DNA of 64,000 nt from Clostridiales bacterium (lineage in GTDB: Bacteria > Bacillota > Clostridia > Christensenellales > CAG-138). The notes below the pieces were generated by a model. It ran no database searches, was not told where the DNA came from, and saw nothing but the letters and a program-made list of their open reading frames with translations. Below, piece by piece: positions 39,162-55,161 of the stretch. A program made the translations under genes and the position numbers. The stretch spans positions 22,286 through 86,285 of the forward strand of contig CAKJYC010000049.1 of assembly GCA_918244965.1 (NCBI GenBank), in the 5' to 3' direction. How positions within the stretch are numbered: position 1 is the stretch's first letter; each line of letters begins with the position of its first letter.

Positions 39162-41084
39162 TCAATACTTTCTTGCGTCCTTAACGTGGGCGAGGTGATC
39201 GCGGTAGGCGTCGAGATTCTTCGGATTTTCGGAAACCTCCGTGTCGCCGACGCGCCACCAGGAGCCGTAGCCCTCGGTCATGGATTTCGGCAGCACGCGG
39301 ATGTCAAACACGACCGGAACGCCCTCGATCTTCTTGGCTTCTTTAATCGCGGCCTTCATTTCGTCGACGGTACGGATCGTGAACGCCCTGCACCCGTAAC
39401 CCTCGGCGATCTTTGCAAAGTCGACCGACATAAAGTCGCCGGAATGCGCGCCGTCCGCGCCGCGGAAGCGCAGCTCGGTGCACAGCGTGTCGTTGCCGTG
39501 GCCGACCTGCAGGTTGTTGATGCAGCCGAACGAGGCGTTGTTGAACACGCAGACGTTGATCTTCTTGTGCTCCTGCACGGCGGTCAAAAGCTCGCTGTGC
39601 AGCATGACAAAGCTGCCGTCGCCGACCATCGCATACACGTCGCGATCGCCGATCGCGTACTTGACGCCCAAAGCGCCGGAGACCTCATAGCCCATGCACG
39701 AATAGCCGTATTCCATGTTGTAGGTGTCGACGCCGCGCGCGCACCACATGCGCTGCATGTCGCCCGGCAGCGAGCCGGAGGAGCCGATCGCAACGTCGTC
39801 TTTGTCGATCGTGAAGTTGATCGCGCCGAGTACGGCGGTCTGGGTGAGGTCCGCATGCAGATCCTTTGCGAAGCGGTCCGCGCTCTTTGCGTTCGCGTCG
39901 TTGACCTCGGGCACGTAGCCGGGGCCGTAGGCGGTGTGCATGAGCCGGTCAAGCTCTTTAAACCAGCGGTCGCGCGCGTCCGTTATCTCGGTCGTATACG
40001 GGGCCTTGTAGCCGCCGAGCGCCGCAAGCAGCACCGGCAGCGCGCGCTTTGCGTCCGCGATCACCGGGACGGCGTCCATCTTGTACGCCTGGAATTCGCT
40101 GACGTTGATGTTGACAAACCTTGCGTCTTCACGGAACAGCCACTTGGACGCGGTCGTGAAGTCCGTATAGCGCGTGCCGACGCCGATGACGACGTCCGCC
40201 TCCTTCGCGATCTCGTTTGCCGCCGAGCAGCCGGTCACGCCGATGCCGCCGAGGTTCAGCGGATGGTCGTAGGGGATCGCGCTCTTGCCGGCCTGCGTCT
40301 CGCCGAACGGGATGCCGGTCGCTTCCGCAAATGCCTTGAATTCGGCGTGCGCTTCGCTGTAGCGGACGCCGCCGCCGCAGATCAGAAGCGGGCGCTTCGC
40401 GGCCTTGATGACGGCCGCGGCCTCCTCGATCGCCTCCGCGTCGGGCTGCCGCCGCGCAAGACGGTGGACGCGCTTTTCAAAGAACGATTCGGGATAGTCA
40501 TACGCCTCGCCCTCGACGTCCTGCGGGATCGCAATGCAGACTGCGCCGGTGTTCGCCGGATCGGTCAGCACGCGGAAGGCGGAGATCATCGCGCTCATCA
40601 GCTGTTCGGGACGAACGATGCGGTCCCAGTAGCGGCAGACGGCGCGGAACGCGTCGTTGGTCGAGATCGACAGGTCGTGCGTTTGCTCGATCTGCTGCAG
40701 CACCGGGTCGGGCTGACGGCAGGCGTAGACGTCGCCGGGCAGGATCAGCACGGGGATGTTGTTCGCAGTCGCGGTCGCGGCGGCGGTCACCATGTTGGCG
40801 GCGCCGGGGCCGACCGACGAGGTCACGGCAAAGATCTTTTTGCGCTTCATCTGCTTTGCGAACGCGACGGCGGTGTGCGCCATGCCCTGCTCGTTCTTGC
40901 CCATAAAGACCTTGAGCCGGCGCGTTTCCTGACGGAGCGCCTGGCCGAGACCGACCACGTTGCCGTGGCCCGGCAGCATGATCACGCCCTCGACGAACGG
41001 ATGCTCCTGCCCGTCGTAGGAAATGTACTGGTTTTCGAGAAAGCGCACCAATGCCTGCGCCATCGTCAAACGGATCGTTTTCAT
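39162..41084 (-). CDS. iolD: 3D-(3,5/4)-trihydroxycyclohexane-1,2-dione acylhydrolase (TPP-dependent)
   Basis: 640 aa. [20 protein letters not shown]...[11 protein letters not shown]..., TPP-enzyme architecture. Size and N-terminus are typical of IolD. Adjacent to iolB and iolE. Confidence 0.88.
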
Positions 41085-41096
41085 CTTGTCCTCCTG

Positions 41097-41888
41097 TCAA
41101 CCCTTGAAGATATGCTCGTTTGCGTCGGGCTTCCACAGCCACGCGTGCTCCGGATCGTCGATGCGCGTCTTTTTCCACGGATCGCCGTCCAGGTGCCGGA
41201 TGCCCCACGCGTAGCACATGGCGTAGCCGGGCGCGGCGACCTGCGAATGGAAGCCGTGATTGATGACCGCAAGCCCGTTGTGTCCGGTTTTGAAGATCTC
41301 ACCGTTGCTGAACCCCGCGCCGAAGCCGTTCGGATAGTCGAACCGGTAGAAATAGACCTCCGGCTGCGGATGGTGGTGCGGCGGATAGCTCGACCAGCGG
41401 CCGGGGAAGTTCAGCACCTCGCCCAGCACCATGTTCGAGAACGGCGCGTTGTCATAGTCGAAGAACGTCTTGATCTCGCGGCGCATGCAGCCCATCAGCT
41501 CGCCGTTCGCGCCCGCGTGCTGCACCTGCACCGTGTCCGGCGTGTACAGCACCGGTTCGTAGTCGCGCTCGTTTGCCGTCTGCTGGATGAACAGCTCGGC
41601 GTGCCCGTGCGCTTCGACCGTGATGCGGACCCTGCGCGGACAGAGCAGGCAGTACGCCTCGTGATAAAAGCAGTCGGGACGGCTCGCTTCGACGGCCTTG
41701 TCCGCAAAGCGCAGCGTGACCGCGCCCTCGAACAGCAGCACGGCCGTTTCCTTGTCCGGCTCCTCGATCGTATAGACGTCGCCTTCCTCCATGACGAGCA
41801 GGCCCACGTCCATCTGCGTGCCGAGATCGTCGACCTTCGCGTCGATATACGCGTTGTAGCCGCGATGCAGCTCCTTTTCAAAATACAT
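41097..41888 (-). CDS. iolB: 5-deoxy-glucuronate isomerase
   Basis: 263 aa cupin. GRWSSYPPHHH..., ...HLDGDPW...DPEHAWL, as in IolB/KduI-like proteins. Confidence 0.85.
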   Translation of the reverse strand: MYFEKELHRGYNAYIDAKVDDLGTQMDVGLLVMEEGDVYTIEEPDKETAVLLFEGAVTLRFADKAVEASRPDCFYHEAYCLLCPRRVRITVEAHGHAELFIQQTANERDYEPVLYTPDTVQVQHAGANGELMGCMRREIKTFFDYDNAPFSNMVLGEVLNFPGRWSSYPPHHHPQPEVYFYRFDYPNGFGAGFSNGEIFKTGHNGLAVINHGFHSQVAAPGYAMCYAWGIRHLDGDPWKKTRIDDPEHAWLWKPDANEHIFKG

Positions 41889-41897
41889 AGCCGCGCC

Positions 41898-42806
41898 TCA
41901 CAGTCCCGTATGCTCCGCAATGTAGCGGCGGCCCTTGATCGCGTATTCGAGCGGATTCGCCTTGGCGGGGTCCTGCTCGGCCTCGACCAGCAGCCAGCCC
42001 TCGTAATGCGCGTCGGAAAGGACCTTGAACACCGGATCGAAATCCACGTCGCCGTCGCCCGGCACGGTGAACGCGCCGTTGCGCACAGCGGTCAGAAAGC
42101 TCCAGTTGTTTTGACGCGCCTGCTCGACGACCGGCAGCCGCATATCCTTCAGATGCACATGGCCGACGCGGTCGACGTATTTTTTGAGCATGGCCAGCGG
42201 ATCCTCGCCCGCAAAGGTGAAGTGGCCGGTGTCGTAGCACAGAAAGACGTAGCGCGGATCGGTGTTCGCCATCATGCGGTCGGTTTCCTCGGCGGTCTGC
42301 ACGACGGTGCCCATGTGGTGATGGAAGCACAGCTTGAAGCCGCGCTCATAAGCGACCTTGCCGAGCGCGTCGAGCCCCTTGCACAGGCGGTCCCAGCCGT
42401 CGTCGTTCAGCACGGGCTTTTTGCCGCCGGTCAGGATCGGCGTCTCGGTCTGGCCCTGGATCGACCAGCTCTGCTCGGAGACGTTGATGCGGTTTGCGCC
42501 GACGGCTTCGAGAAAGTCCAGCTCACGGGTAAAGTCCGCGATGTTCTCTTCGAGGGGCTTTGTGAGCAGGAAGGAGGAGAACCAGCGGCTTGCAATGCGC
42601 ATGCCGCGAAGATCCAGCTCCCACTTGAGTTCCTTCGGGTCCTTCGGGTACTTGTTGCCGATCTCGCAGCCGGTGAAGCCCGCAAGCGCCATCTCGCTGA
42701 CGGTCTGGCGGAACGTGTTCTCTGCGCCGAGCTCCGGCATATCGTCGTTGCACCAGCCGATCGGCGCGATGCCGAGGTGCACCTTTTCTTTGTCAAACAG
42801 CGCCAT
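41898..42806 (-). CDS. iolE: myo-inosose-2 dehydratase
   Basis: IAPIGWCNDDMPELG, HHHMGTVVQTAEETDRMMANTDP, FTVPGDGDVDF, VEAEQDPAKANPLEYA match B. subtilis IolE motifs from memory. Confidence 0.9.
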   Translation of the reverse strand: MALFDKEKVHLGIAPIGWCNDDMPELGAENTFRQTVSEMALAGFTGCEIGNKYPKDPKELKWELDLRGMRIASRWFSSFLLTKPLEENIADFTRELDFLEAVGANRINVSEQSWSIQGQTETPILTGGKKPVLNDDGWDRLCKGLDALGKVAYERGFKLCFHHHMGTVVQTAEETDRMMANTDPRYVFLCYDTGHFTFAGEDPLAMLKKYVDRVGHVHLKDMRLPVVEQARQNNWSFLTAVRNGAFTVPGDGDVDFDPVFKVLSDAHYEGWLLVEAEQDPAKANPLEYAIKGRRYIAEHTGL

Positions 42807-42818
42807 GGGATACTCCTT

Positions 42819-43991
42819 TCAGATGCGGGCGACGCCGCTCTTTCTTGCCGCTTCGGCAACTGCCGCCGCGACCGCCGGGCCGACGCGCTTATCAAACGCC
42901 TTCGGAATGATGTAGTCTGCGGAAAGCTCGTCGTCGGAGATCAGGTCGGCCAGCGCCTTTGCCGCCGCCATCTTCATTTCCTCGTTGATGTCGCTTGCGC
43001 GCACGTCAAACGTGCCGCGGAAGATGCCGGGGAACGCAAGGACGTTGTTGATCTGGTTCGGGTAATCGCTGCGGCCCGTCGCAATGACCTTTGCGCCGCC
43101 GGCTCTTGCGTCGTCCGGGAAGATCTCGGGCGTCGGGTTCGCGCAGGCAAAGATGATCGCGTCGCGGTTCATGGTCTTTACCATCTCGGTCGTGACCGTG
43201 CCGGGCGCCGAAACGCCGATGAACACGTCCGCGCCGACCAGCTGATCGGCAAGGGAACCGGGCTTGCGTTCGAGGTTCGTGACCTCGGCCATCTCCTCCT
43301 TGATCCAGTTCAGACCGTCGCGGCCCTTGTAGATCGCACCCTTGCGGTCGCACATCGTGATGTGACGGAAGCCTGCGGAAAGCAGCAGCTTCACGATCGA
43401 CACCGCCGCCGCGCCTGCGCCGGAGGTGACAACACGGACGTCCTCCTTTTTCTTGCCGACGACCTTCAAAGCGTTCGTGAGCCCCGCCAGCGTGATGACC
43501 GCGGTGCCGTGCTGATCGTCGTGGAAGATCGGGATGTCGCACTTTTCCTTCAGCTTGCGCTCGATCTCAAAGCAGCGCGGCGCGGAGATGTCCTCCAGAT
43601 TGATGCCGCCGAACGAGCCGGACAGCAGATACACCGCGTTGACGAACTCATCGACGTCGTGCGTCTTGATGCACAGCGGGAACGCGTCGACGTTGCCGAA
43701 CGACTTGAACAGCACGCACTTGCCCTCCATGACCGGCATGCCCGCTTCGGGGCCGATGTCGCCGAGGCCGAGCACCGCGCTGCCGTCGGTGATGACCGCG
43801 CAGAGGTTGTGACGGCGGGTCAGCTCGTAGCTCTTGTTGATGTCCTTCTGGATCTCAAGGCACGGCTGCGCGACGCCGGGAGTGTACGCAAGGCTCAGAT
43901 CGTCCTTGGTCGCGACGGGAACCGTTGCGATGACTTCGATTTTGCCCTTCCATTCTCCGTGAAGACGGAGCGATTCTTCCGCATAATTCAT
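42819..43991 (-). CDS. NAD(P)-dependent malic enzyme (short form, no PTA domain)
   Basis: 390 aa. LSLAYTPGVA, TDGSAVLGLGDIGPEAGMPVMEGK, FGGINLEDI, HDDQHGTA, GAGAAA. Confidence 0.9.
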   Translation of the reverse strand: MNYAEESLRLHGEWKGKIEVIATVPVATKDDLSLAYTPGVAQPCLEIQKDINKSYELTRRHNLCAVITDGSAVLGLGDIGPEAGMPVMEGKCVLFKSFGNVDAFPLCIKTHDVDEFVNAVYLLSGSFGGINLEDISAPRCFEIERKLKEKCDIPIFHDDQHGTAVITLAGLTNALKVVGKKKEDVRVVTSGAGAAAVSIVKLLLSAGFRHITMCDRKGAIYKGRDGLNWIKEEMAEVTNLERKPGSLADQLVGADVFIGVSAPGTVTTEMVKTMNRDAIIFACANPTPEIFPDDARAGGAKVIATGRSDYPNQINNVLAFPGIFRGTFDVRASDINEEMKMAAAKALADLISDDELSADYIIPKAFDKRVGPAVAAAVAEAARKSGVARI

Positions 43992-44021: not shown

Positions 44022-45272
44022 TTATGAAACGACGGTCGGCAGCGTCGAGCCGCCGTACGGCATCGCCAGCACCGTCGCGTTCGGTCCCAGTTTCAAAAAT
44101 GCGTGATCCAGCGCTTCCTGCGCGGTCTTATACGGTACAAGAAAGATCGACCGCACAAAGTCGTCGTCCAGCTCGGACACAAGATCGACCTCGGCCCGTT
44201 CCAGCACCATCGCGATCGCCGCGGCCTTGTGCCCGCCGAGACGGAATTCACGGCCGATGCGCTCGATCAGGCTGTGCGCCGAGGGCGCTTCGGTCATCCA
44301 TTGCTCGAACGTTTTTTCGCCGAGACCCTCACGGCACGAGCCGATCAGGATGATGACGCCGCCGTCGCGCACCGCGTGCTTTGCGTTGTCCAGCGCCTTC
44401 TGCGTTTGATAGAGGTTCAGGTCCTTCGGCGCGCCGCCCTGCGAAACCAGCACGATATCGGCGGGCGCAGAGAGTTCCTTGCGGTACAGCGTGTCGAGGA
44501 AGCTGCAGCCCTCGCGGTGCGCCAGTACGGCGTCGCCCGCGACGGCTTTCAGGATCTCCTTATGCTCGGAAAGCACGACGTTTACGATGAAGTCGATCCC
44601 GACCATCGCGCCGGCCTCCTCGATATCCATGCGCAGCGGGTTCGTATCGAGCGCGCCGGCCTTCGCCTCGGGCAGTACCATGCGGCTGTGGTTGGCCTGG
44701 ATCGCCGCGCGCGTGGACACGCCGGGCATGATCGCCTTTGCGCCGCCGGAATAGCCCGCAAAGTAGTGGTACTCGATGTTGCCGAGACAGATCCTGCGAT
44801 CGGCCTCCGCCACGACGCGCGTGATGTCCACGGGCGTCCCGCGCGAGGTCACGCCGTAGGAAACGCAGTCAAGGGGATCGCTGTCGACGCAGCGGATCTC
44901 GGCCCACGCGCGTTCGCCCGCAAGCCGACGCTTTTCCTCGTCGGTCTGACGCCTGTGGCTGCCGAGCGCGAACACCAGCGTGATATCCTTCGGATCCACG
45001 CCGCCCGCGTACAGCTCGTCCAGAAGGGCGGGCATGACCTTTGCGGTCGGCATCGGACGAGTGACGTCGCTCGTGACGATCGCCACCGTTTCGCCCGGAT
45101 GCACGATGTCGCGAAGCAGCGGGGTGCCGATGGGCGCCGAAAGCGCGCGTCTGACCTCCGCCTCGCCCGTAAGGCCCACCGGGACCTCGTTCGCGTGCAG
45201 CTCGCCGATCAGGTTCTGTTCCGGCACCTCGACCTCCTGAACGCCTGTGCCGAATCCGAAACGCAGCTTCAT
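44022..45272 (-). CDS. LarA-family nickel-pincer-dependent 2-hydroxyacid racemase/epimerase homolog
   Basis: 416 aa, DUF2088/LarA-like. ...IVTSDVTRP..., ALGSHR, HYFAGYSGGAKAIMPG (Lys at the position that tethers the NPN cofactor in LarA, from memory), LYQ..KAL. Confidence 0.8.
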   Translation of the reverse strand: MKLRFGFGTGVQEVEVPEQNLIGELHANEVPVGLTGEAEVRRALSAPIGTPLLRDIVHPGETVAIVTSDVTRPMPTAKVMPALLDELYAGGVDPKDITLVFALGSHRRQTDEEKRRLAGERAWAEIRCVDSDPLDCVSYGVTSRGTPVDITRVVAEADRRICLGNIEYHYFAGYSGGAKAIMPGVSTRAAIQANHSRMVLPEAKAGALDTNPLRMDIEEAGAMVGIDFIVNVVLSEHKEILKAVAGDAVLAHREGCSFLDTLYRKELSAPADIVLVSQGGAPKDLNLYQTQKALDNAKHAVRDGGVIILIGSCREGLGEKTFEQWMTEAPSAHSLIERIGREFRLGGHKAAAIAMVLERAEVDLVSELDDDFVRSIFLVPYKTAQEALDHAFLKLGPNATVLAMPYGGSTLPTVVS

Positions 45273-45275
45273 GGC

Positions 45276-46238
45276 TTACTTTCTCTTGAGCACGGCCTTC
45301 GCCTGCTGCTCGATGTGCGCGGCGGTCAGACCGAAGCGCTCCATCAGATAGCTCTGCGTGCCGACCTCGCCGAACTCGTCCTCGACCGCGACGCACGCGG
45401 CGGGGACGGGGCAGCGCTCCGCAAGCACTTCGAGAATGTTGTTGTACAGGCCGCCGTGACGGTTCGCGTTCTCGGCGACGACGACCGCGCCGCATTTTTT
45501 CGCAAACGCTTCAACGGCGTCCGCGTCGATCGGCTTGATCGTGAAGCAGTCCACGACCGCGGCGGAGATCCCCTGCGCTTCGAGGGACGCGGCCGCCTTC
45601 ATGGCCTCGTGCAGCATCAGACCTGCGGCGAAGATCACGACGTCGCTGCCGTCGCGGAGCGTGATCGCCTTGCCGATCGGAAGCTCGCTGCCGTCCGCAT
45701 AGACGCGGGCGAGCTGCTTTCTGCCGACGCGGATATACTTGACGCCGGGGCGGTTCTGACACTGGCGCAAAACGCTTGCAAGGCACGCCGGGTCGGACGC
45801 GTCGATGACGGTCGCGCCGGGCAGCGCGTTGTAGAGCGCCACATCCTCAAACGGCATGTGCGTGCCGCCGTTCATCGTGGCGGTAACGCCGGGGTCGGTG
45901 CCGATCACGGTCATGTCGTTCTTTGCATAGCCGCCGGACAGAAAGACCTGATCGTAGCAGCGGCGGGAGGCAAACGTGCCGAAGCTGTGGATGATCGGCT
46001 TGAAGCCTGCGACCGCGAGACCGGCCGCCACGCCCGCCATGTTCGACTCGGCGATGCCGCAGTCGATCGCGCGTTCGGGATTCGCCTTCGCCCACTTCAG
46101 CGTGCCGGAGCAGCTCATCAGGTCGGCGTCGAGGAAGATCGCGTTCGGGTCGTGATCCACGATGTCGGCGACCGTCGCGCCGATGACGTCCTTGCACAGA
46201 CGGGGATCCAGTTCCCCGTTATAAACGATGTTCAACAT
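45276..46238 (-). CDS. Transketolase, C-terminal (pyrimidine-binding) subunit
   Basis: 320 aa. ...AIDCGIAESNMAGVAAGLA..., ...THMPFEDVAL.... 3-nt gap from the N-terminal subunit gene. Confidence 0.9.
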   Translation of the reverse strand: MLNIVYNGELDPRLCKDVIGATVADIVDHDPNAIFLDADLMSCSGTLKWAKANPERAIDCGIAESNMAGVAAGLAVAGFKPIIHSFGTFASRRCYDQVFLSGGYAKNDMTVIGTDPGVTATMNGGTHMPFEDVALYNALPGATVIDASDPACLASVLRQCQNRPGVKYIRVGRKQLARVYADGSELPIGKAITLRDGSDVVIFAAGLMLHEAMKAAASLEAQGISAAVVDCFTIKPIDADAVEAFAKKCGAVVVAENANRHGGLYNNILEVLAERCPVPAACVAVEDEFGEVGTQSYLMERFGLTAAHIEQQAKAVLKRK

Positions 46239-47093: not shown

Positions 47094-48347
47094 TTATTGT
47101 TGCGGCAGGGTCGAACCGTGCCGCAGGGCCTTGACGACGGGCAGCTCTTCGCCGCTCAGGAAGCGGATCAGCGCGCCGCCGCCGGTGCAGATATAACCGA
47201 TCTTGTCGGTCAGCTTGTATTTTTCGGTCGCCGTGATGCTGTCGCCGCCGCCGAGGACCGTAAAGCCCTCGGTGTCCGCAAGCGCCTGCCACAGCGACTT
47301 GGTTCCGTATTCGCTCGCTTCCTGCTCGAACACGCCCATCGGGCCGTTGACGAACACCGTTTTGGCCGAAAGGATGCAGGCGCGATACTTTGCCGCAGTC
47401 GCGTGTCCGATGTCGACCGCGCCGACGTCGCTCGGCATCATGTAGATCGACGCCTCGCGCCGTTCGCCGTTTTCGACCCACGCAAGGTCGTCAGGCAGCA
47501 GGATCCTGTCGCCGAACCGCTCGTAGAGCGCCTTCGCACGGTCGAAGAACTCGGCGTAGTTCGACTTGCAGATAAACGCGCGGCTATAGCTTCCGATCTC
47601 CTGTCCGAGCGCGATCAGGAAGATGTTTGCGACCAGGCCCCCGGTCAGGATCGTATCGGCGACCCCGCGCTCCAGGACCGTCTGCATCATCAGAAACGCG
47701 TCGGAGATCTTTGCGCCGCCGAGCGCGAACACGCACGGACGGGCGGGGTCCTCCATGACGGAGGAGACGGTGCAGTATTCCTTCTCGAACAGCCTGCCCA
47801 TCGCGGACGGCAGGATCTGCTCGAACCCGCACAGGCTCGGCTGATCGCGGTGCGCGGCGGCAAACGCGTCGCACACGTACGCGTCCGCAAGCGGGGCGAG
47901 CTTCTGCACCAGCAGCGTTTTTGCCTGCTGCTCGTGCGAAAGATGCAGCTTCATTTCAAAGAGCGTCTGCTCCTCCGCGACGAAGCGCACGTTGTCCAAA
48001 AGCAAAACATCGCCATCGCAGAGATCACGGATGGCTTGTCTTGCCGCGGGGCCGCAGACGTCGTCGATCCATTTGACCTCCCGGCCGAGAAGGCGGGAGA
48101 GGACCGCGGCGTGCGGTTTGGTCGTATAAAAATTCTTGTACTCGATGTCGCTGCCCTGATGCGCCAGCAGCACGACCTTTGCGCCCTTTTCGGACAGCTC
48201 GCGGATCGTCGGCACGCAGGCCGTGATGCGGTTGATGCTTTTCAGCGTCCCCGCATCACGATCCACGGGCTGATTGATATCCACGCGGCAAAGGACCGTT
48301 TTTCCGCGCACCGAGAGTTCGTCCAGCGTTCTGATGCCGAATCGCAT
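47094..48347 (-). CDS. pgk: Phosphoglycerate kinase family protein, archaeal-type sequence
   Basis: 417 aa. RVDINQPV, LLAHQGS (canonical H(Q/L)GRP), LLLDNVRF, FVNGPMGVFE, GGGDSI. Confidence 0.8.
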   Translation of the reverse strand: MRFGIRTLDELSVRGKTVLCRVDINQPVDRDAGTLKSINRITACVPTIRELSEKGAKVVLLAHQGSDIEYKNFYTTKPHAAVLSRLLGREVKWIDDVCGPAARQAIRDLCDGDVLLLDNVRFVAEEQTLFEMKLHLSHEQQAKTLLVQKLAPLADAYVCDAFAAAHRDQPSLCGFEQILPSAMGRLFEKEYCTVSSVMEDPARPCVFALGGAKISDAFLMMQTVLERGVADTILTGGLVANIFLIALGQEIGSYSRAFICKSNYAEFFDRAKALYERFGDRILLPDDLAWVENGERREASIYMMPSDVGAVDIGHATAAKYRACILSAKTVFVNGPMGVFEQEASEYGTKSLWQALADTEGFTVLGGGDSITATEKYKLTDKIGYICTGGGALIRFLSGEELPVVKALRHGSTLPQQ

Positions 48348-48359: not shown

Positions 48360-49418
48360 TTATTTCTTCTTGAATCTGCCGATCTTCAGGTATTCGTTCG
48401 TCTTTGCCGTGCCCTCTTCGCGGGTCAGCTGCATCTGCATCGCGGCGCGGATCGCGTCGATCGTTTCGGGGATCGTGACGCTCTCCTGCGGGATGTTGAT
48501 CGCGTACATGATGTCGTTGCCGCTCTCAACGATGCTGTCCTCCCACAGCCCGATCTCGTACATGTCGCCTCTGCGGTTGCCGAGATCGCGCGCGTACTTG
48601 AACAGGCTCGCGTTGCCCTTGAAGCCCTCGTCGATCGTGACGGTACGGATGCGCGGATGCGCGCGGAACGCTTCGAGCGCCATCTCGCGGGTGATCTTTT
48701 TGCCGTCTTTGGCGGTCGCCAGCACGGTGATGATGTGGCCGTGCGTGACCGGCGTGTGCACGAGGATGCCCGTCGCTTCGACGTGCGGCATGATCGTCAT
48801 CAGGTCGACCGCCTGATGCGACGGCGCCTTGTCGATCTGCAGCGCGTTGGTGAGGCCGCGGTGATAGTCGCCCGGATCCGCGACGCGGCGGATGATCGTG
48901 ATCGCGACCTTCTCGATGCCGATCGCGCGGTCAAGGCAGTCGACCGTGCGGATCAGGCCCGTCGTGTTGCAGCTGGTCAGCTTGAGGTAATCCTGACCGA
49001 CGCCCTTTTCATAGTTCGCATAGCCGTGGAAGAACACGTCCGCGACGGAGTTCTTTTCGCCGCCCTGGAAGATCGCCTTGACGCCGACCTTCTGATACAG
49101 CTCCTTGTTCTTTGCGCCGACGCCGCCCGGCGAAGAGTCGAGCATGATATCGACGCTTCTGCAAAGCTCCTCGAACGTGCCCGCAACCGGGATGTCATAG
49201 CGGTCGAACGCTTCACGGTCCGCGCCGTCGACGAGGTAGAGATTGTATTTGACGCCGTTTGCGCCGATCATGTCGTTCTCGCGCAGCGCGCGGATCGACA
49301 GTGTGGGCGCGAGGTCCGCAATGCCCACCAGCTCCATGTCGCCCTGCATGGCGACGCCGTCGGCCAGACGCTGACCGATCGTGCCGTAACCGGCGACTCC
49401 GACTCTGACTTTAGCCAT
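48360..49418 (-). CDS. gap: Type II (archaeal-type) glyceraldehyde-3-phosphate dehydrogenase family protein
   Basis: 352 aa from ATG 49418, with AAAGGAG 6 nt upstream. MAKVRVGVAGYGTIGQRLADGV...MELVG and the active-site SCNTTGL (Cys150) are hallmarks of archaeal GAPDH, not bacterial GapA (SCTTN). Confidence 0.8.
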   Translation of the reverse strand: MAKVRVGVAGYGTIGQRLADGVAMQGDMELVGIADLAPTLSIRALRENDMIGANGVKYNLYLVDGADREAFDRYDIPVAGTFEELCRSVDIMLDSSPGGVGAKNKELYQKVGVKAIFQGGEKNSVADVFFHGYANYEKGVGQDYLKLTSCNTTGLIRTVDCLDRAIGIEKVAITIIRRVADPGDYHRGLTNALQIDKAPSHQAVDLMTIMPHVEATGILVHTPVTHGHIITVLATAKDGKKITREMALEAFRAHPRIRTVTIDEGFKGNASLFKYARDLGNRRGDMYEIGLWEDSIVESGNDIMYAINIPQESVTIPETIDAIRAAMQMQLTREEGTAKTNEYLKIGRFKKK

Positions 49419-49432: not shown

Positions 49433-50446
49433 TCAGATCTCGTCGATGCGGACGGGACGGTTTTCCTTGAGGGACTTGCTGCACGCAAGCGCCAGCTTGA
49501 TGGACAGAAGGCCGTCCTCGATGCCGACCCACGGTTCCTTGCCGTTCTCGACGCAGTCGATGAACTCGCGGACCTCCGCCTGATACGAGCCCATGTAGCG
49601 CTCAAGGAAGAACCACAGCGGCTTTTCGCCCGTCACGCCGTCCACCGTGGACAGCACGATGTTGGACGCGGAATCGTTCGCGTTCTGCACACAGCCCTTC
49701 GAGCCGAAGACCTCGCCGCGCTGATCGTAGCCGTAGACCGCCTTTCTGGAGCCGTCGATGGTGGCAAGCGCGCCGTTAGAGAGCTTCAGCGTGATCGTCG
49801 CGGTGTCCACGTCGCCCGCTTCGCCGATCGCCGGATCGATGAGGCACGCGCCCTGCGCGTACAGCTCGACGATCTCCTGACCGGAGAGGTAGCGCACCAT
49901 GTCGAGGTCGTGGATCATCATGTCCATGAAGATGCCGCCGGAAACAGCGACGTACTTGGCGGGCGGGGGCTCCGGATCGCGCGAAGAGATGCGGACGAAC
50001 TGCACCTCGCCGATCTTGCCGTCCTCGATCGCCTTGCGCATCGCGCGGTAGTTGTGATCGTAGCGGCGGTTGAAGCCGACCTGATAGACGAGCTTCTTCG
50101 GGCTCGCCGCGAGCGCCGCCTTGACCTCTTCGATCTTTGCGATGCTCTGGTCGATCGGCTTTTCGCAGAAGATGTGCTTGCCCGCGGCGATCGCTTCAAG
50201 CGAAAGCGGGGCGTGCTGATCGGTCGACGCGCAGATCAGGACCGCGTCGATGCGGTCGTCCTCAAGGATCTTGCGATAGTCCGAATATACGTTCTCGATG
50301 CCTGCGGACTTTGCCCACGCGGCGACCTCCGGCTTGATGAACGGGTCCGCGATCGCGAGGATCCGCGCGCCGGGAACGCCGGTGAGAATGCTCTTTGCGT
50401 GGACCTGACCGATGCGGCCCGCGCCGATAATACCTACATTGACCAT
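49433..50446 (-). CDS. iolG: myo-inositol 2-dehydrogenase (Gfo/Idh/MocA family)
   Basis: GIIGAGRIGQVHAK, IFCEKPI, VGFNRRYD, SRDPEPPPAKY...GGIFMDMMIHDLDM closely resembles rhizobial IdhA/IolG from memory. Confidence 0.85.
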   Translation of the reverse strand: MVNVGIIGAGRIGQVHAKSILTGVPGARILAIADPFIKPEVAAWAKSAGIENVYSDYRKILEDDRIDAVLICASTDQHAPLSLEAIAAGKHIFCEKPIDQSIAKIEEVKAALAASPKKLVYQVGFNRRYDHNYRAMRKAIEDGKIGEVQFVRISSRDPEPPPAKYVAVSGGIFMDMMIHDLDMVRYLSGQEIVELYAQGACLIDPAIGEAGDVDTATITLKLSNGALATIDGSRKAVYGYDQRGEVFGSKGCVQNANDSASNIVLSTVDGVTGEKPLWFFLERYMGSYQAEVREFIDCVENGKEPWVGIEDGLLSIKLALACSKSLKENRPVRIDEI

Positions 50447-50497
50447 TGTATTCCTCCGTTTGTTTTCAATTTGTATGGATGCGGGATCGCTCCCGGT

Positions 50498-52063
50498 TCA
50501 TTCGCCGTACGGCTCGCCCTTGCCTTCGACGAGCGAGGCATAGGTGCGTTGGATCTTTGCCCAGTTCTGGTCGCGGTCGAGCGCGACGCCTCTGCCGACG
50601 CCGGACACGATGAGACCCGCGCCCTTCTGCTCAAGCATTTCGCCGAACTCGCGCAAAAGCGCGGGCGCGCTGCCGGGCTCGGTGGAGCGGCCGTCGAAGA
50701 TGACATGCACGAACACGTTTTCGACGCCCGCCTTCTTCGCCATATCGCACAGCGCGAGCGGATAGTCGATCGACCCGTGCGAGGACTTTTTCGTGAGCAG
50801 CGCAAAGAGATGCAGCGCCGTGCCGCGCTCTTTGACGCCGTTCAGCGTGTGCAGAAACACCGGGTTCTCCGCAAACGAGCCGTCCTTCATCGCGTTGTCA
50901 AGGCGCACGTCGTCCTGCAGGACCACGCGGCCGGAGCCGAGATTGATGTGGCCCGCCTCGGAATTGCCCGTCTTGCCCGCCGCAAGACCGACCGCCGGGC
51001 CGGACGCTTCGAGCTTCGCGTAGGGATACTCCCGAAGCAGCGCGTCCCACGCGGGCGTGTCCGCCGTAAAGATCGGGTTGTTGTCGGTCGGAAGGTCGAG
51101 ACCCCAGCCGTCGCAGATGAGCAGTAAAACCTTGTTCGGCTTTGCAAAGCGGAACAGCGGCGTGCCGGTCATTTCCGCGGGCGCGGGAAGGCCCATTGCG
51201 GACAGCACCGTGGGCGCGACGTCGCAGAGTCGGCCGCTCGTTTCGAGCTGTTCCGTGCCGTCGCCGATCGCGATGCAGGCGACGAGATTCGTCGTGTGCG
51301 AAACGTGCGGCTTGCCCTCCGGCGTGTGCAGAATCTCGATGTTGCCGTGGTCCGCGGTCACAAGTACAGTATAGCCCTTTTCGCGCGCGTACGCAACGGT
51401 TTTCCCGACATATTTGCTGATCGCTTCGGCTGCGACCGGCTTTGCCGCGTCCGAGGACGTATGGCCGATGACGTCGCCGTTTGCGAAGTTCGTCACGATG
51501 AAATCGTAGCCCTTGTCCAGCCCGCCGCACAGCGTTTCATACACCTCCGGCAGCTTCAGCTCCGGCACCGTTTCAAACGGCACGCCCTTGGGCGAGGGGA
51601 TGCGGATGTCCGTCTCGCCCTCGAACGGCTTCTGATTGCCGCCGTTGAAGAAGAACGTGACGTGCGCAAACTTTTCGCTCTCGGCAAGGTGCATCTGCGT
51701 CCTGCCGTTTTCACTCAGCACCTCGGCGAGCGTCTTCTGCACCTTGCTCGGCGCAAAGGCGATCGGCAGATAGGTGTATTTTTCGCTGTACATTGTCAGG
51801 ATCACGAAGTCCAGCGGATCGAGCTGCGTTCTCTCGAAGCCCTTGAACGCCGGATCGGTGAACGCATCGGTCAGCTCGGTCTCGCGCTCGCCTCTGCGGC
51901 AGCAGAAGATCACGCCGTCGCCGGGACGAACGAGACCGACCGGGCTGCCGTTTCGGTCGACAAGGTTCAACGGCTCGAAATGATACTCCGAGGCGACGGA
52001 GGCAAAGCGCTTTTGGGCAGCGCGGGCCAGCGCGTCGCCGCCGGCAAACTTGTATTCGCTCAT
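50498..52063 (-). CDS. Circularly permuted 2,3-bisphosphoglycerate-independent phosphoglycerate mutase (iPGM)-like phosphotransferase
   Basis: 521 aa from ATG 52063, with AAAGGAG 8 nt upstream. Residues 1-304 carry canonical C-terminal iPGM motifs (ESEKFAHVTFFFNGG, ANGDVIGH, TADHGN, SHTTN, EMTG). Residues 308-521 carry canonical N-terminal motifs (LLLICDGWG, GNSEAGH, LHLFALL, DGR, LDRDQNW). Confidence 0.8.
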   Translation of the reverse strand: MSEYKFAGGDALARAAQKRFASVASEYHFEPLNLVDRNGSPVGLVRPGDGVIFCCRRGERETELTDAFTDPAFKGFERTQLDPLDFVILTMYSEKYTYLPIAFAPSKVQKTLAEVLSENGRTQMHLAESEKFAHVTFFFNGGNQKPFEGETDIRIPSPKGVPFETVPELKLPEVYETLCGGLDKGYDFIVTNFANGDVIGHTSSDAAKPVAAEAISKYVGKTVAYAREKGYTVLVTADHGNIEILHTPEGKPHVSHTTNLVACIAIGDGTEQLETSGRLCDVAPTVLSAMGLPAPAEMTGTPLFRFAKPNKVLLLICDGWGLDLPTDNNPIFTADTPAWDALLREYPYAKLEASGPAVGLAAGKTGNSEAGHINLGSGRVVLQDDVRLDNAMKDGSFAENPVFLHTLNGVKERGTALHLFALLTKKSSHGSIDYPLALCDMAKKAGVENVFVHVIFDGRSTEPGSAPALLREFGEMLEQKGAGLIVSGVGRGVALDRDQNWAKIQRTYASLVEGKGEPYGE

Positions 52064-52077
52064 GATCGGTTCTCCTT

Positions 52078-52854
52078 TCAATGGATGCGCGGCGTCGGGT
52101 CCTCAGCGGTTTCGGGACAGAAGCGCCCGTCGCCGGGGAAGACGCGCAGCAGCTCGTCAAAGTGATGGATGATGCAGTCGGGCCGGTTCTCCTCGGTCAG
52201 CTTGAATTCGAGCCCGCCGGGGTATTCCGCGCCGACCGTGCCGGCGAAGCAGGACTGCTTCGCGCCGATGATGTCGCGCTTCAGGTTGTCGCCGACGAAG
52301 CAGCTCTCCTCCGGCCGCACGCCGGCTTCCGACAGCGCGAGGAAATAGATCGCGGGATGCGGCTTTCGGAGCATCGTCACCGAGCTTTGCTGCACCGTGC
52401 AGAACAGGTCGCGGATGCCGTCGCGATCGAGCCACTCGTCAATCTCGACCGTGCCGATCAGGTCGCTGATGATGCCGACGAGGTAGCCGCGCGTGCGCAG
52501 CTCCTTCACGGTTTCAATGCCCTTTTCGACGACCACGCGCTCGCCCTTCGCCCTGCGGAAGCAGTAGGTCAGCTCGACGGCGGCCTTCTCGATTTTCTCA
52601 CGGTCCCATTCCGGCACGAGCCAGCGGGTCCAGAGCATCGTTTCCGGCGCTTCGCACATGTACTTCAGCGCCCATTCACGGTAGCCGTCGTAGCGCTTGT
52701 TCAGGAAATCGTAGAACGCGTCGGCGTCCATGTCGGTGCCGCACAGTTCCTTGATGCGCTCGCGCGCCTGCTTGATAAACGGACGGTTGTCCTCGTCGAC
52801 CACGCGGAATGTGCCGCCGAGATCGAGAAAGATCGCCTTGATGTTTTCTTTCAT
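52078..52854 (-). CDS. HAD-IA-like hydrolase, tandem paralog 4
   Basis: FLDLGGTF, IISD, LRKPHPAIY, VGDNLKRDI. Start at MKENIKA, with GGAGGG upstream, 2 nt after the upstream stop. Confidence 0.8.
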   Translation of the reverse strand: MKENIKAIFLDLGGTFRVVDEDNRPFIKQARERIKELCGTDMDADAFYDFLNKRYDGYREWALKYMCEAPETMLWTRWLVPEWDREKIEKAAVELTYCFRRAKGERVVVEKGIETVKELRTRGYLVGIISDLIGTVEIDEWLDRDGIRDLFCTVQQSSVTMLRKPHPAIYFLALSEAGVRPEESCFVGDNLKRDIIGAKQSCFAGTVGAEYPGGLEFKLTEENRPDCIIHHFDELLRVFPGDGRFCPETAEDPTPRIH

Positions 52855-52856
52855 AT

Positions 52857-53624
52857 TCAGACCCTCCGGACCTTGTCCCATGCGACGTGCGGCGCCTTCG
52901 GGAAGATCTCCTTGAGTTCGTTGAAGTCGAAGATGACCGCGTCGGGACGGTTCTCATCCGTGATCTTCTCCTTCGCGAGCTTCTCCGGCGTCGTGTACAG
53001 GATGAACATGCCGTAGCCCGCAAGGCGCGTGCCCTCGACGTCGCGGTTCAGGTTGTCGCCGATGTAGACGCAGCGCTCCGGGCGAACGCCCAGGAGGTCG
53101 CACGCCTTGTTGGAGATCGCGGGATCGGGCTTTCTTATGCCCTCGACGCACGAGAGCAGCACCGCGCCGAAATACTGTTCAAGCCCGTCGGCCTTGAGCC
53201 AGCGCGGGATCTCCTGCGAGGTCACGAGGTTTGAGATGATGCCGAGCTTGTAGCCGTTCGCGTACAGGTCTTTGATCGACTGCGCGCCGTTCGGGGCGAC
53301 CACGCGGCGGCCGTCCTTGTTGCGGTACTCGATCGTCAGCTCGATCGCATTCTTTTTGATCAGCTCACGGTCGTATTCGGGCGTCAGCCACTTGGTCCAA
53401 AGCTCCTCCTCCGGCGCTTCGCGCATCGTCTCGAAGCACCACTTGCGGTAGCCCGCGTAGCGGTAGTCGAGGAATTTGCAGAATTCGTCCGGGTCGCCTG
53501 TTTCGCCGCACATTTCGGCGATCTTGCGGCGCGCCTCCGCTTCAAACGCGGCGTCGCGCTCCACCAGACGCAGCGTGCCGCCGAGATCGTAGAAGATCGC
53601 GTCAAATTCTCGTTCGTTTGCCAT
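52857..53624 (-). CDS. HAD-IA-like hydrolase, tandem paralog 3
   Basis: FYDLGGTL, IISN, IRKPDPAI, IGDNLNRDV. Confidence 0.8.
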   Translation of the reverse strand: MANEREFDAIFYDLGGTLRLVERDAAFEAEARRKIAEMCGETGDPDEFCKFLDYRYAGYRKWCFETMREAPEEELWTKWLTPEYDRELIKKNAIELTIEYRNKDGRRVVAPNGAQSIKDLYANGYKLGIISNLVTSQEIPRWLKADGLEQYFGAVLLSCVEGIRKPDPAISNKACDLLGVRPERCVYIGDNLNRDVEGTRLAGYGMFILYTTPEKLAKEKITDENRPDAVIFDFNELKEIFPKAPHVAWDKVRRV

Positions 53625-53636
53625 ACTTCGTTCTCC

Positions 53637-54371
53637 TTATTTGTTTTCGTCCGAAAGGGGCGGGAAGATGTCCAGAAGCTGACCGATCCGGGTGATCGTG
53701 TAATCGGGCTGCAGAATGATTTCCTGCGGCTCGTTTTTGATCGTGTCCGGCTCGTCGATGCGGATCATCAGCGCATAGCCGGCCTTGCGCGTGCCCTCGA
53801 CGTCGCGGATCGGATTGTCGCCGACGTACGCGCACTGTTCGGGCGTCTTGCCGATCGCGCGGCAGGCGAGGTGATAGATCGCGGGGTCGGGCTTACGAAG
53901 CCGTACCTTGGAGGACAGGATGACCGTCTTGAAGTAGTGCGCCACGCCGTCGGCGATCATCCAGTCGGGGATCTCGGTCTCGGTGATCGTGTTCGCGATG
54001 ATGCCGAGCGTGTAGCCGCGGCGGTCCAGCTCGATGATCGTGGACTTCACGTCGTCGCGCGGGACGCGCCGTCCATCATGGTCGCGCCACAGACGCGTCA
54101 GTCTGCCTGCGTGCGCGCACACGCGCTCCGGATCGTAATCCGGCAGCAGGTGCTGGCTCCAGAGCTCCATCTCGCCCGCGTCAAGAAGCGTCTTTTTCAC
54201 CATGCTGCGGTACTTCTTCCAGCGCGCTTCGAGCTTCTCGAAGAACACGTCGTGCGGCTCGGTCGCGCCGACCAGCTCCATCAGTTCCCGCTCCGCCGCA
54301 TCGGAGAATTCCTTGTCCTTGATGACGATGCGCAGCGTGTTGCCGACGTCAAAGAAAATGGTGTCCGTCAT
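53637..54371 (-). CDS. HAD-IA-like hydrolase, tandem paralog 2
   Basis: FFDVGNTL, IIAN, LRKPDPAIY, VGDNPIRDV. Start at MTDTIFF, with GGAGAGAGG upstream. Confidence 0.8.
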   Translation of the reverse strand: MTDTIFFDVGNTLRIVIKDKEFSDAAERELMELVGATEPHDVFFEKLEARWKKYRSMVKKTLLDAGEMELWSQHLLPDYDPERVCAHAGRLTRLWRDHDGRRVPRDDVKSTIIELDRRGYTLGIIANTITETEIPDWMIADGVAHYFKTVILSSKVRLRKPDPAIYHLACRAIGKTPEQCAYVGDNPIRDVEGTRKAGYALMIRIDEPDTIKNEPQEIILQPDYTITRIGQLLDIFPPLSDENK

Positions 54372-54402
54372 TGTCCTCTCTCCTTTTCTGTATTGCAAAC
54401 TG

Positions 54403-55161
54403 TTATTGGTGATTCCGCTCCCGGAGGATCCCCGGCAGCTCGTTCAGTTCCCGGATCACATAATCGGCCTTCGGCGCGTCCGGCCCCTGAAAGGCGACGT
54501 CGCGGTGGGCGATCGAGGGGTTGTTGATGCGCACGATCAGGCCGAGGCCCGCATTGCGCGCGCCGAGCACATCGCGGGAGATCGTGTCGCCGACATAGCC
54601 GGTCTCCGCCGCCGTCACGCCCATGCGGGAAAACGCGATCTCAAAGATCCTCGGATCGGGCTTGCGGATCCCGGTCTCGCTCGACATCACGATGCATTCC
54701 ATGTACTGCGCGATCCCGTATTCGTTCATCATGTGCGGGACGAGCGAGGTGGAGATGATGTTGGAGATGATGCCCTGCCGGACGCCCATCGCGTGGATCT
54801 CTTTGATCGTTTCGACCAGATACGGCTTTCGCATGTTGATCATCCGCTCGTAGTCATAGAGGAAGCTCAGCTCCTCGGCGATCGGGGCAAGCCGCTCCTC
54901 GCCGATGTGAAACTCCTTGAGGTAGTATTCGTTCCAGATGACGGGGGCGGGCAACTCGGTCTTCTCGCGCTCGCCGCGGTGCTTGTACGCTTCGCCGTTC
55001 TCGCGCAGCAGCAGCTTCAGCTGTTCCGGCGTCGTGTCGAGCACGATGCCGTAATCGTTGAGCCTGCGGATCAGCCGGTCGGCAAAGCGAAGCTCCGAAT
55101 CCGCGGTGCGCGTGGCGGACTGCAGTGTTCCGCCGAGATCGTAAAGCAGCGTCGTGATCAT
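54403..55161 (-). CDS. HAD-IA-like hydrolase, tandem paralog 1 (first gene of the operon)
   Basis: LYDLGGTL, IISN, IRKPDPRIF, VGDTISRDV. Start at MITTLLYD, with GGAGG upstream. Confidence 0.8.
   Translation of the reverse strand: MITTLLYDLGGTLQSATRTADSELRFADRLIRRLNDYGIVLDTTPEQLKLLLRENGEAYKHRGEREKTELPAPVIWNEYYLKEFHIGEERLAPIAEELSFLYDYERMINMRKPYLVETIKEIHAMGVRQGIISNIISTSLVPHMMNEYGIAQYMECIVMSSETGIRKPDPRIFEIAFSRMGVTAAETGYVGDTISRDVLGARNAGLGLIVRINNPSIAHRDVAFQGPDAPKADYVIRELNELPGILRERNHQ

Follow-up and report, generated by a model that had tools for sequence, protein, structure and literature searches.

Gene content of the operon

A 64,000-nucleotide stretch from a Clostridiales bacterium (GTDB Christensenellales, CAG-138; GenBank assembly GCA_918244965.1, contig CAKJYC010000049.1, positions 22,286 to 86,285 of the forward strand), called the window below, contains an operon in which genes for the first steps of myo-inositol degradation are combined with genes for a transketolase, glyceraldehyde-3-phosphate dehydrogenase (GAPDH) and phosphoglycerate kinase (PGK) homologs, a LarA-family racemase, and malic enzyme. 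The gene content suggests an apparently undescribed variant of inositol catabolism that is assembled from known enzyme families. Gene identities, operon structure, linkage across genomes, and residue signatures were observed directly; identities were assigned with Pfam and NCBIfam profiles (NCBIfam release 20, June 2026) by comparing bit scores with curated cutoffs.

The operon consists of 15 consecutive open reading frames (ORFs) on the minus strand, running from 55185 down to 39162, with a coding-type GC content at third codon positions (GC3) of 0.82 to 0.87. The first five genes encode four HAD-family paralogs (HAD1 to HAD4) and a homolog of cofactor-independent phosphoglycerate mutase (iPGM). 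A preliminary description of this DNA, made from the letters alone, had counted these five without naming them. Its number of genes, their strand, and their assignment to one unit stand, while some details change: the spacers are 3-51 nt by coordinates rather than 2-51 nt, the longest-ORF start of the first gene is at 55185 (an alternative in-frame ATG is at 55161), and with longest-ORF starts HAD4 shares a short overlap with each of its neighbors, HAD3 and iPGM.

The single strong promoter, operator, and single terminator noticed earlier were all found again. The promoter is followed by a LacI-type, operator-like palindromic 12-mer, GCAAACGTTTTC, and a second copy of GCAAACGTTTTC lies at about 55465-55480, near the start of a divergent LacI gene. 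At the other end a hairpin stands between iolD and a convergent ABC ATPase gene, with TTTTGTT after it on the minus strand. There is a T-run on both strands, so the hairpin closes iolD and the ABC ATPase gene alike. The natural reading of this placement is that the 15 genes would form one transcription unit. The features on which the argument depends are as follows.

55213-55241, minus strand: sigma-70-type promoter, TTGACA-17-TACAAT, 11/12 consensus matches
49433-50446, minus strand: iolG, inositol 2-dehydrogenase, step 1 (TIGR04380, 448 bits, cutoff 355)
48360-49418, minus strand: homolog of type II (archaeal-type) GAPDH, proposed phosphorylating D-malate-semialdehyde dehydrogenase (NF003251, 395, cutoff 185)
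47094-48347, minus strand: archaeal-type PGK homolog, proposed to convert D-malyl phosphate and ADP to D-malate and ATP (Pfam PF00162)
46242-47084, minus strand: split transketolase, N-terminal subunit, binding thiamine diphosphate (ThDP) (Pfam Transketolase_N; NCBIfam)
45276-46238, minus strand: split transketolase, C-terminal subunit, channel motif TDPG...MNGGTHM (Transket_pyr and Transketolase_C; 6YAJ alignment)
44022-45272, minus strand: LarA-family nickel-pincer-dependent malate racemase, Mar2 type (NF052593, 558, cutoff 500)
42819-43991, minus strand: malic enzyme, 390 amino acids (Pfam, NCBIfam)
41898-42806, minus strand: iolE, inosose dehydratase, step 2 (TIGR04379, 406 bits, cutoff 290)
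41097-41888, minus strand: iolB-like 5-deoxy-glucuronate isomerase, step 4, divergent in sequence (Pfam KduI/IolB, 3e-46)
39162-41084, minus strand: iolD, ThDP-dependent trihydroxycyclohexanedione hydrolase, step 3 (TIGR04377, 906 bits, cutoff 715)
39120-39146, both strands: bidirectional, GC-rich hairpin terminator, 12 bp

The upper inositol pathway is probably complete. The presence of iolG, iolE, iolD, and iolB had been proposed, and the first three exceed their curated cutoffs. The iolB-like protein is recognized by Pfam; it scores 93 bits against TIGR04378, under the cutoff of 205, and its gene is syntenic with iolE and iolD throughout the related loci. The set of genes named between iolG and iolE (split transketolase, type II GAPDH, archaeal-type PGK, LarA, and malic enzyme) was likewise confirmed by Pfam and NCBIfam.

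The operon and the window lack iolC, iolJ, and iolA, as had been claimed. A Pfam scan of every sizeable ORF of the 64-kb window found no aldehyde dehydrogenase of the IolA type and no class II aldolase of the IolJ type. The sole PfkB kinase of the window (57175-58131, plus strand), which the preliminary description had missed in the divergent operon although it was right that no IolC is present, does not match the IolC model. There is also no recurrent IolC-, IolJ-, or IolA-like neighbor among the clustered ORFs of 80 related loci. The Bacillus subtilis-type pathway (IolG/E/D/B/C/J/A) and this one have IolG, IolE, and IolD in common, and probably the fourth enzyme, IolB, as well, and the intermediate 2-deoxy-5-keto-D-gluconate (DKG) is expected to be identical. 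IolC, IolJ, and IolA of the Bacillus-type pathway are absent from the window and the 80 loci, and they would be replaced by transketolase, type II GAPDH (GAPDH-II), PGK, LarA, and malic enzyme. The Bacillus-type products are dihydroxyacetone phosphate, acetyl-CoA, and CO2, while pyruvate, CO2, and a C2 unit are predicted here.

Distribution and linkage of the module

Close relatives of the operon GAPDH-II are widespread in gut and rumen bacteria. Among 8,000 candidates scored, more than 6,800 homologs were found at E<=1e-20; the top 120 share 88% identity or more, and all of them stem from gut and rumen assemblies. Among GTDB species representatives, a scan yielded at least 556 relatives. Identity is 84-97% in the best 80 loci, which belong to Clostridia (Oscillospiraceae, Lachnospiraceae-labelled metagenome-assembled genomes, Christensenellales, and Anaerovoracaceae), Erysipelotrichaceae, and Sphaerochaetaceae/Spirochaetales, and this taxonomic spread implies horizontal transfer. 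In four loci from Spirochaetales/Sphaerochaetaceae (L017, L019, L030, and L049) the operon proteins are 76-91% identical to those of Clostridia, with GAPDH-II and malic enzyme the most conserved. Such identity across phyla indicates that the cassette as a whole has spread horizontally, and recently, among bacteria of the gut and rumen.

The GAPDH-II clade is tight and well separated. When representatives of 50%-identity clusters were searched, the clade members (76% and 60%) were followed by a gap to archaeal-type enzymes at 44% or less. GAPDH-II and PGK have full-length homology to the archaeal enzymes, and GAPDH-II is 38-44% identical to its nearest full-length homologs outside the bacterial clade. 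Unlike the archaeal enzymes, the bacterial clade is 84-97% identical over Clostridia, Erysipelotrichaceae, and Spirochaetota and is found in catabolic operons beside a malate racemase. The nearest relatives outside the clade (P0129, P0131, and P0153; 38-44%, similar length) have lost the catalytic Cys, with PQPSL, SNYNI, or PIGMV in place of SCNTT. These proteins appear to be pseudo-enzymes or to have acquired a new function.

For the analysis of gene linkage, the window proteins were mapped onto the best 80 of the at least 556 loci, and high-GC loci were gene-called after masking of genes identified by tblastn. Two subsets were used: 65 loci that extend 3 kb or more downstream, and 30 well-covered loci that extend 6 kb or more upstream and 8 kb or more downstream. 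Linkage to GAPDH-II in the two subsets is as follows.

PGK: 62/65; 28/30
LarA: 58/65; 26/30
Transketolase: 41/65; 21/30
Malic enzyme: 30/65; 17/30
iolE: 37/65; 23/30
iolE, iolB, and iolD together: 31/65; 20/30

GAPDH-II, PGK, and LarA form a near-invariant trio and are almost inseparable. The module is tied to inositol genes in 26 of the 30 well-covered loci: 20 with iolE/B/D, three more of the Bacillus type (two with divergent iolB/iolD and one with iolD cut at the locus end), and three of the IolM/N/O type. At least three gene orders are seen for the minimal ten-gene set (iolGEDB, two-subunit transketolase, GAPDH-II, PGK, LarA, and malic enzyme). For example, L081 has GAPDH-II, PGK, the two transketolase genes, LarA, malic enzyme, iolE, iolB, iolD, and iolG behind a DeoR regulator. 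In L083-85 an ABC transporter and a Gfo gene precede iolE, iolB, iolD, iolG, GAPDH-II, PGK, LarA, malic enzyme, and the two transketolase genes. The L083-85 arrangement belongs to a species that is very prevalent in the human gut; the assembly collection indexes its PGK in 1,532 blocks. In one Dysosmobacter species the trio forms a unit of its own, preceded by a DeoR regulator and flanked by fatty-acid-synthesis genes, TrkAH, and an EF-G-like gene. The co-occurrence of iolGEDB with transketolase, GAPDH-II, PGK, LarA, and malic enzyme, raised earlier as a point to check across genomes, is found in related loci, though the transketolase is missing from 7/20 of the well-covered iol-linked operons. 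Constant gene content in shuffled order, together with the portability of the trio, argues that the product of PGK is the substrate of the racemase.

The module is also associated with a second type of inositol degradation. In loci without iolE/B/D, the GAPDH-II/PGK/transketolase module, with or without LarA and malic enzyme, lies beside a ribose-type ABC transporter and IolM-, IolN-, and IolO-like genes (L056:205-15603, L025:1349-16695, and L070). A creatininase-family protein in these loci passes the equivalog model for IolN, 3-dehydro-scyllo-inosose hydrolase (276, cutoff 245). The IolO-like TIM-barrel epimerases score 228-273, below the cutoff of 300, and an IolM-like Zn-dehydrogenase gene is beside the module as well. 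In L056 a gene for UxaE, the tagaturonate/fructuronate epimerase, directly follows the transketolase. Some related loci share IolN, IolO-like, IolM-like, and UxaE proteins with the Thermotoga maritima-type pathway (IolG/M/N/O, UxaE, and hexuronate enzymes), while no gene identified beside the module is for the hexuronate enzymes with which that route is completed in Thermotoga. The window itself differs from the Thermotoga type in using the IolE/D/B branch, although its PfkB kinase resembles TM0415 of the Thermotoga cluster.

A candidate route from inositol to pyruvate through D-malate

The operon is interpreted as a variant myo-inositol catabolic pathway with a transketolase/malate lower half. 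We infer the substrates of the transketolase, GAPDH-II, and PGK, the acceptor, and the direction of flux from sequence and gene context, and we give the full scheme a probability of about 0.6. By family membership, IolG, IolE, IolD, and the IolB-like isomerase would convert inositol to DKG, as in Bacillus. The split transketolase would then move the HOCH2-CO- unit of unphosphorylated DKG to an acceptor, most simply glyceraldehyde 3-phosphate (G3P), leaving (R)-3-hydroxy-4-oxobutanoate (D-malate semialdehyde). GAPDH-II, a bacterial offshoot of the archaeal type, would oxidize this aldehyde, probably with NAD+, and phosphorolysis of the thioester would give D-malyl phosphate, from which the archaeal-type PGK homolog would form D-malate and ATP. 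The Mar2-type nickel-pincer malate racemase would convert D-malate to L-malate, and malic enzyme would produce pyruvate and CO2. GAPDH-II and PGK, often with LarA, would thus be a portable module that converts an aldehyde-acid to a dicarboxylate with a gain of ATP and that can be attached to Thermotoga-type inositol genes too. That LarA and malic enzyme process D-malate from the GAPDH-II/PGK pair is held with more confidence than the transketolase step and its acceptor.

The stereochemistry of DKG, derived here, is consistent with the scheme. Transketolase donors are required to have the D-threo arrangement. Seen from C6, DKG reads HOCH2-CO-CHOH-CHOH-CH2-COO-, and its hydroxyls are D-threo (3S,4R), like those of fructose and xylulose, so DKG would be a valid donor. 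When C6-C5 is removed, C4 becomes the aldehyde of (R)-3-hydroxy-4-oxobutanoate, and oxidation of this compound gives (R)-malate, which is D-malate. Spatially the aldehyde corresponds to D-glyceraldehyde 3-phosphate with CH2-COO- replacing CH2-OPO3. Since the predicted product is D-malate, a racemase is needed ahead of an L-malic enzyme. This re-derivation agrees with the preliminary description about donor and product. Its name for the acyl phosphate, 4-phospho-D-malate, is a numbering slip, because the phosphate would be on the carboxyl beside the CHOH carbon, which is malate C1. On every part that could be addressed computationally, the scheme put forward there appears to be supported. D-fructuronate, the product of UxaE, is also a carboxy-ketose with D-threo configuration by the same reasoning. 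This suggests that it is a second transketolase donor, in which case a C4 aldehyde-acid would be left and tartrate would be the product.

LarA passes the curated equivalog NF052593, 'nickel-dependent malate racemase, LarAH6 family', and its best solved relative is Mar2 (6D6Z, 401 bits), compared with 180-208 bits for lactate racemases. Malate racemases have His/Gln-Lys at the positions of LarA1 W358/T359, and the Lys pairs with the second carboxylate of malate (PMC11770544). The His-Lys signature LGGHKAA is found in the window LarA and in 60/60 extracted orthologs, and the catalytic His motifs and cofactor-tethering Lys are kept (GSHR and E[YF]HYFAGYSGGxK). The earlier assignment of this protein as a putative malate racemase is supported by the equivalog, the nearest structure, and the signature residues. 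In the operon the LarA gene directly precedes the malic enzyme gene. A malic-enzyme neighbor was the context clue that led to Mar2, and its discoverers left the in vivo role and the source of D-malate open (PMC7583248). The window LarA resembles Mar2 in its curated family, structural relative, signature residues, and malic-enzyme neighbor; where the published D-malate source is open, the operon context offers a candidate.

The transketolase belongs to a distinct substrate-channel subtype. In canonical transketolases, R358 and H461 (Escherichia coli numbering) bind the substrate phosphate, and D469 reads the C2 hydroxyl of the acceptor. The best solved relative of the operon protein is a canonical split transketolase, 6YAJ, in which 'THAGLTVGEDGASHQ' corresponds to 'TDPGVTATMNGGTHM' of the operon protein. 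The changes in the channel are R358K, H461D, E468M, D469N, and Q474M, and of R358, H461, D469, and H473 only H473 is kept. The pattern is conserved in 44/45 orthologs, with M, L, F, or Y at position E468, and the exception is a second copy of the canonical type. It is the conservation of changes at phosphate- and hydroxyl-binding residues that sets this subtype apart. The NCBIfam matches of the transketolase, like those of GAPDH-II and PGK, are to generic family models only. There is a precedent for the reaction in 6-deoxy-6-sulfofructose transketolase (sulfo-TK), a dedicated transketolase of anaerobic Firmicutes that cleaves an anionic, non-phosphorylated ketose and passes the C2 unit to G3P (PMC9594981, PMC11659671). 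The likeness is one of described reaction; the far-end anion is a sulfonate there and a carboxylate here. Unlike in the sulfo-TK pathway, GAPDH- and PGK-type enzymes are proposed here to oxidize the leftover aldehyde and to couple this to substrate-level phosphorylation.

GAPDH-II and PGK have active sites that are largely intact with a few conserved changes. Their best matches of known structure are 2CZC (242 bits) and the archaeal 2CUN (300 bits), respectively. The GAPDH-II motifs LTSCNTT (Cys140), THGHI (His219), and I[IV]RRVADP (Arg167/168) are each present in 80/80 orthologs; Arg167/168 form the substrate-phosphate site of type II GAPDH (PMC12041015). At the second anion site, the His193/His194 pair is altered, SHH reading SHQ (His194 to Gln), and VHQES is replaced by IPQES. 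The Lys that NADP-dependent archaeal enzymes have at the end of beta-2 is an Asp here (GIADL), suggesting use of NAD+, as for a catabolic enzyme. The PGK homolog covers profile positions 1-379 of 379 of PF00162 with 379 bits and has the full two-domain fold. In PGK the 3-phosphoglycerate (3-PG) phosphate is bound by a basic patch of His62, Arg65, Arg122, and Arg170. This patch is incomplete in the operon PGK: Arg65 (Lys in 2CUN) is lost and the other three are kept. Searched with two slightly different patterns, 68-69 of 69 orthologs have Ser at its position and Asp directly after it (HQGSD). The changes in GAPDH-II and PGK are compatible with a smaller, singly charged anion without proving it, and by themselves the active-site residues do not decide the substrate either way.

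Malyl-phosphate chemistry is known from an engineered system. A synthetic route to 2,4-dihydroxybutyrate likewise uses malate kinase and malate semialdehyde dehydrogenase chemistry via an acyl phosphate. That route is engineered and 'non-natural', is built on aspartate kinase and aspartate-semialdehyde dehydrogenase scaffolds, and runs reductively on the beta-carboxyl of L-malate, whereas the chemistry here would be natural and oxidative, would act on the carboxyl beside the hydroxyl of D-malate, and would use GAPDH and PGK scaffolds. In the literature searched, this engineered route on the other carboxyl was the only case of malyl-phosphate chemistry. No publication tying inositol to transketolase, malate racemase, or malate semialdehyde was found in a full-text search, which most subscription journals fall outside.

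The closest published physiology is that of Dysosmobacter welbionis, which ferments inositol to butyrate and acetate and whose genome lacks iolJ and malonate-semialdehyde dehydrogenase (Gut 2026, PMC13311982). The authors suggest that a class II aldolase of generic type and an oxoacid dehydrogenase complex act instead, and they ask for enzymology (PMC13311982); transketolase, racemase, and malate are not mentioned in that paper. [4-13C]inositol gave [2-13C]acetate and [4,5-13C2]inositol gave [1,2-13C2]acetate (PMC13311982). By our carbon mapping, this fixes inositol C3/4/5/6/1/2 as DKG C1-C6. The route through transketolase, malate, and malic enzyme also draws the acetyl group from inositol C4-C5, so the published 13C data do not discriminate between the two. 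End-product labelling was therefore rejected as a discriminator, as the aldolase and the transketolase/malate routes place the same inositol carbons in acetate. A PGK search from the Dysosmobacter-like locus gave no match named D. welbionis, and the trio was seen only in the congener.

Several observations weigh against the proposed route. GAPDH-II keeps Cys140, His219, and the Arg167-Arg168 phosphate site, and PGK keeps the equivalents of Arg38, His62, Arg122, and Arg170; with these G3P- and 3-PG-site residues retained, both enzymes could still be ordinary enzymes of G3P and 1,3-bisphosphoglycerate. In the transketolase, H461D adds a negative charge to the channel and gives no obvious aid in binding a carboxylate or a G3P acceptor. 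The transketolase is also cleanly missing, with PGK abutting LarA, from 7/20 of the well-covered iol-linked operons, including the nearest relatives, L001-L004, which means that either another transketolase substitutes or the transketolase is not the cleaving enzyme. L005 additionally lacks PGK, LarA, and malic enzyme, and about half of the loci have no malic enzyme gene. The scheme gives no role to the four HADs, the permuted iPGM, or the neighboring PfkB and PHP genes, and the near-complete iPGM, two genes upstream of GAPDH-II and PGK with iolG between, resembles part of a lower-glycolysis trio. Finally, DKG-6-phosphate was detected by liquid chromatography-mass spectrometry in D. welbionis (PMC13311982), favoring a kinase step in that organism.

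Much of this evidence would fit ordinary glycolytic and pentose-phosphate enzymes that are co-expressed to raise lower-glycolysis capacity, with DKG going to an unlinked kinase and aldolase and with LarA and malic enzyme serving an unrelated malate function. GAPDH-II and PGK are recognized by generic family models, with their catalytic and most substrate-binding residues in place, an iPGM homolog with intact catalytic motifs is in the same operon, DKG-6-phosphate is reported in D. welbionis together with a proposal of class II aldolases as substitutes for IolJ (PMC13311982), and a class II aldolase gene occurs in 2/80 loci (L023 and L058). This explanation is nevertheless unlikely. It leaves unexplained why a malate racemase is the most constant neighbor of GAPDH-II and PGK (58/65), why the trio exists as an operon of its own, why minimal ten-gene operons have neither kinase nor aldolase, why the transketolase phosphate-site changes and the PGK Arg65 change are conserved, and why the module is repeatedly tied to two unrelated upper inositol pathways. 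Triosephosphate isomerase and enolase, which would be expected of a glycolytic booster, are never present in the loci, and iPGM is limited to 17/80, always with the HAD block.

The absence of the transketolase from a third of the iol-linked operons could instead mean that it is accessory and that the module acts on another aldehyde-acid, either oxidizing 5-deoxy-D-glucuronate, the IolD product, to 5-deoxyglucarate with formation of ATP, or oxidizing tartrate semialdehyde derived from fructuronate, with LarA epimerizing a 2-hydroxy-diacid. 5-Deoxyglucuronate is itself an aldehyde, malate racemases epimerize tartrate too, and IolM/N/O and UxaE, to which the module is linked, lead to a product with an extra hydroxyl. 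Such a function is distinctly unlikely, since IolB, which removes the aldehyde by isomerization to DKG, is kept in all Bacillus-type loci, malic enzyme follows LarA here and in 30 loci, LarA is above the malate-racemase cutoff, and there are no downstream genes for a C6 diacid. Where the transketolase is missing, and perhaps generally, DKG might also be cleaved without a sugar-phosphate acceptor. Acetoin-dehydrogenase-like complexes are another ThDP system that cleaves alpha-hydroxyketones, and an E1/E2/E3 complex of this kind would form glycolyl-CoA and D-malate semialdehyde, leaving the remaining steps the same. Genes for E1alpha, E1beta, E2, and E3 are found beside the cluster at L039:1480-6200 and between GAPDH-II and PGK-LarA at L063:11062-16150, both loci without transketolase, and they parallel the oxoacid/acetoin-type dehydrogenase complex that is abundant in inositol-grown D. 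welbionis (PMC13311982). These are only 2/80 loci, and the window has a transketolase and no such complex, making this the least probable of the alternatives and very unlikely.

The transketolase/malate route is the preferred reading of the window, and a broader one can be put forward tentatively, at somewhat less than even odds. Gut and rumen anaerobes may share a horizontally spread, energy-conserving module in which archaeal-type GAPDH and PGK have switched from phosphate- to carboxylate-bearing substrates. With a specialized transketolase, or an acetoin-dehydrogenase-like complex, it would cleave DKG and D-fructuronate and yield D-malate (or tartrate) and one ATP.

For fermenters in the gut and rumen, inositol from dietary phytate and from plant and host lipids is a significant substrate, and host metabolic health has been linked to its conversion into short-chain fatty acids. 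If the route is correct, it gives a testable answer for a gene set found at 556 or more places in GTDB species representatives and very abundant in human-gut metagenomes, and it would supply the lower half that is still missing from inositol fermentation in Oscillospiraceae, Dysosmobacter among them. It would be the first natural malate-semialdehyde/malyl-phosphate couple yielding ATP and a clear case of the recruitment of GAPDH and PGK to the carboxylate isostere of their normal substrates. It would also supply a physiological source of D-malate, and thus a reason for nickel-pincer malate racemases, and correct the routine 'glycolytic' labelling of these genes in metabolic models based on metagenomes.

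Associated phosphoester genes and the neighborhood

The upstream part of the operon and the unit divergent from it contain the following genes.

54403-55185, minus strand: HAD-family paralog 1, motif I DLGGT, without Asp+2 (Pfam, NCBIfam, paralogy)
53637-54398, minus strand: HAD-family paralog 2, motif I DVGNT (Pfam, NCBIfam, paralogy)
52857-53624, minus strand: HAD-family paralog 3, motif I DLGGT (Pfam, paralogy)
52078-52881, minus strand: HAD-family paralog 4, motif I DLGGT (Pfam, paralogy)
50498-52081, minus strand: circularly permuted homolog of cofactor-independent phosphoglycerate mutase (Pfam, NCBIfam, 1EJJ alignment)
55429-56523, plus strand: LacI-family regulator, divergent, likely repressor of the operon (Pfam, NCBIfam; conserved in HAD-type loci)
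56520-57260, plus strand: PHP-domain phosphoesterase (Pfam; co-conserved with LacI and PfkB)
57175-58131, plus strand: PfkB-family kinase, not IolC (best solved relative TM0415, 131 bits)

Only a subset of the loci (16-17/80) has these genes, and this holds for the HADs and permuted iPGM as well as for the divergent LacI-PHP-PfkB unit. The window has five HAD paralogs, four in the operon and one at 19301-20077 on the plus strand, which are 25-45% identical in pairs. Motif I reads D-[LVM]-G-[GN]-T in all five, so that the Asp+2 general acid found in typical HAD phosphatases is lacking. Among the related genomes with a HAD3 gene, the protein is 85-99% identical, a hint of a conserved complex or of an unusual activity. 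The iPGM homolog is not collinear with bacterial GpmI: its residues 317-525 correspond to 5-213 of 1EJJ and its residues 37-309 to 235-508. It keeps the Ser motif GNSEAGH, the metal motifs, and most of the 3-PG-binding arginines, and in each of the 17 loci that have it the gene lies between the HAD block and iolG.

The divergent unit (55429-59358, plus strand) encodes the LacI regulator, the PHP phosphoesterase, the PfkB kinase, and an MFS transporter. The first three are kept opposite nearly every HAD-type operon. TM0415, the nearest solved relative of the kinase, is a pyrophosphate-dependent myo-inositol kinase of Thermotoga (PMC5931981). Together the HADs, the permuted iPGM, the PHP protein, and the TM0415-like kinase may handle inositol phosphates.

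Other genes of the window lie outside the proposed system. The ABC transporter at 34142-39102 was considered as part of it and is not counted, because no related locus has a counterpart. The region 18057-34025 is rich in phosphoester enzymes, with an Exo_endo_phos-family protein, a 995-amino-acid purple-acid-phosphatase-like protein, and a Cof-type HAD. It also encodes a metallo-beta-lactamase-fold protein, a membrane H+-pyrophosphatase, and a second ABC system with a fused permease, a paralog of the ABC system at 35648-39102. This region may be an island for the scavenging of organophosphates, possibly inositol phosphates. Near the start of the window, a lysine riboswitch (Rfam RF00168, 84.6 bits, 1722-1897, minus strand) is located upstream of a thioesterase-fold gene and a gene for a beta-keto acid cleavage enzyme (BKACE), at 425-1664.

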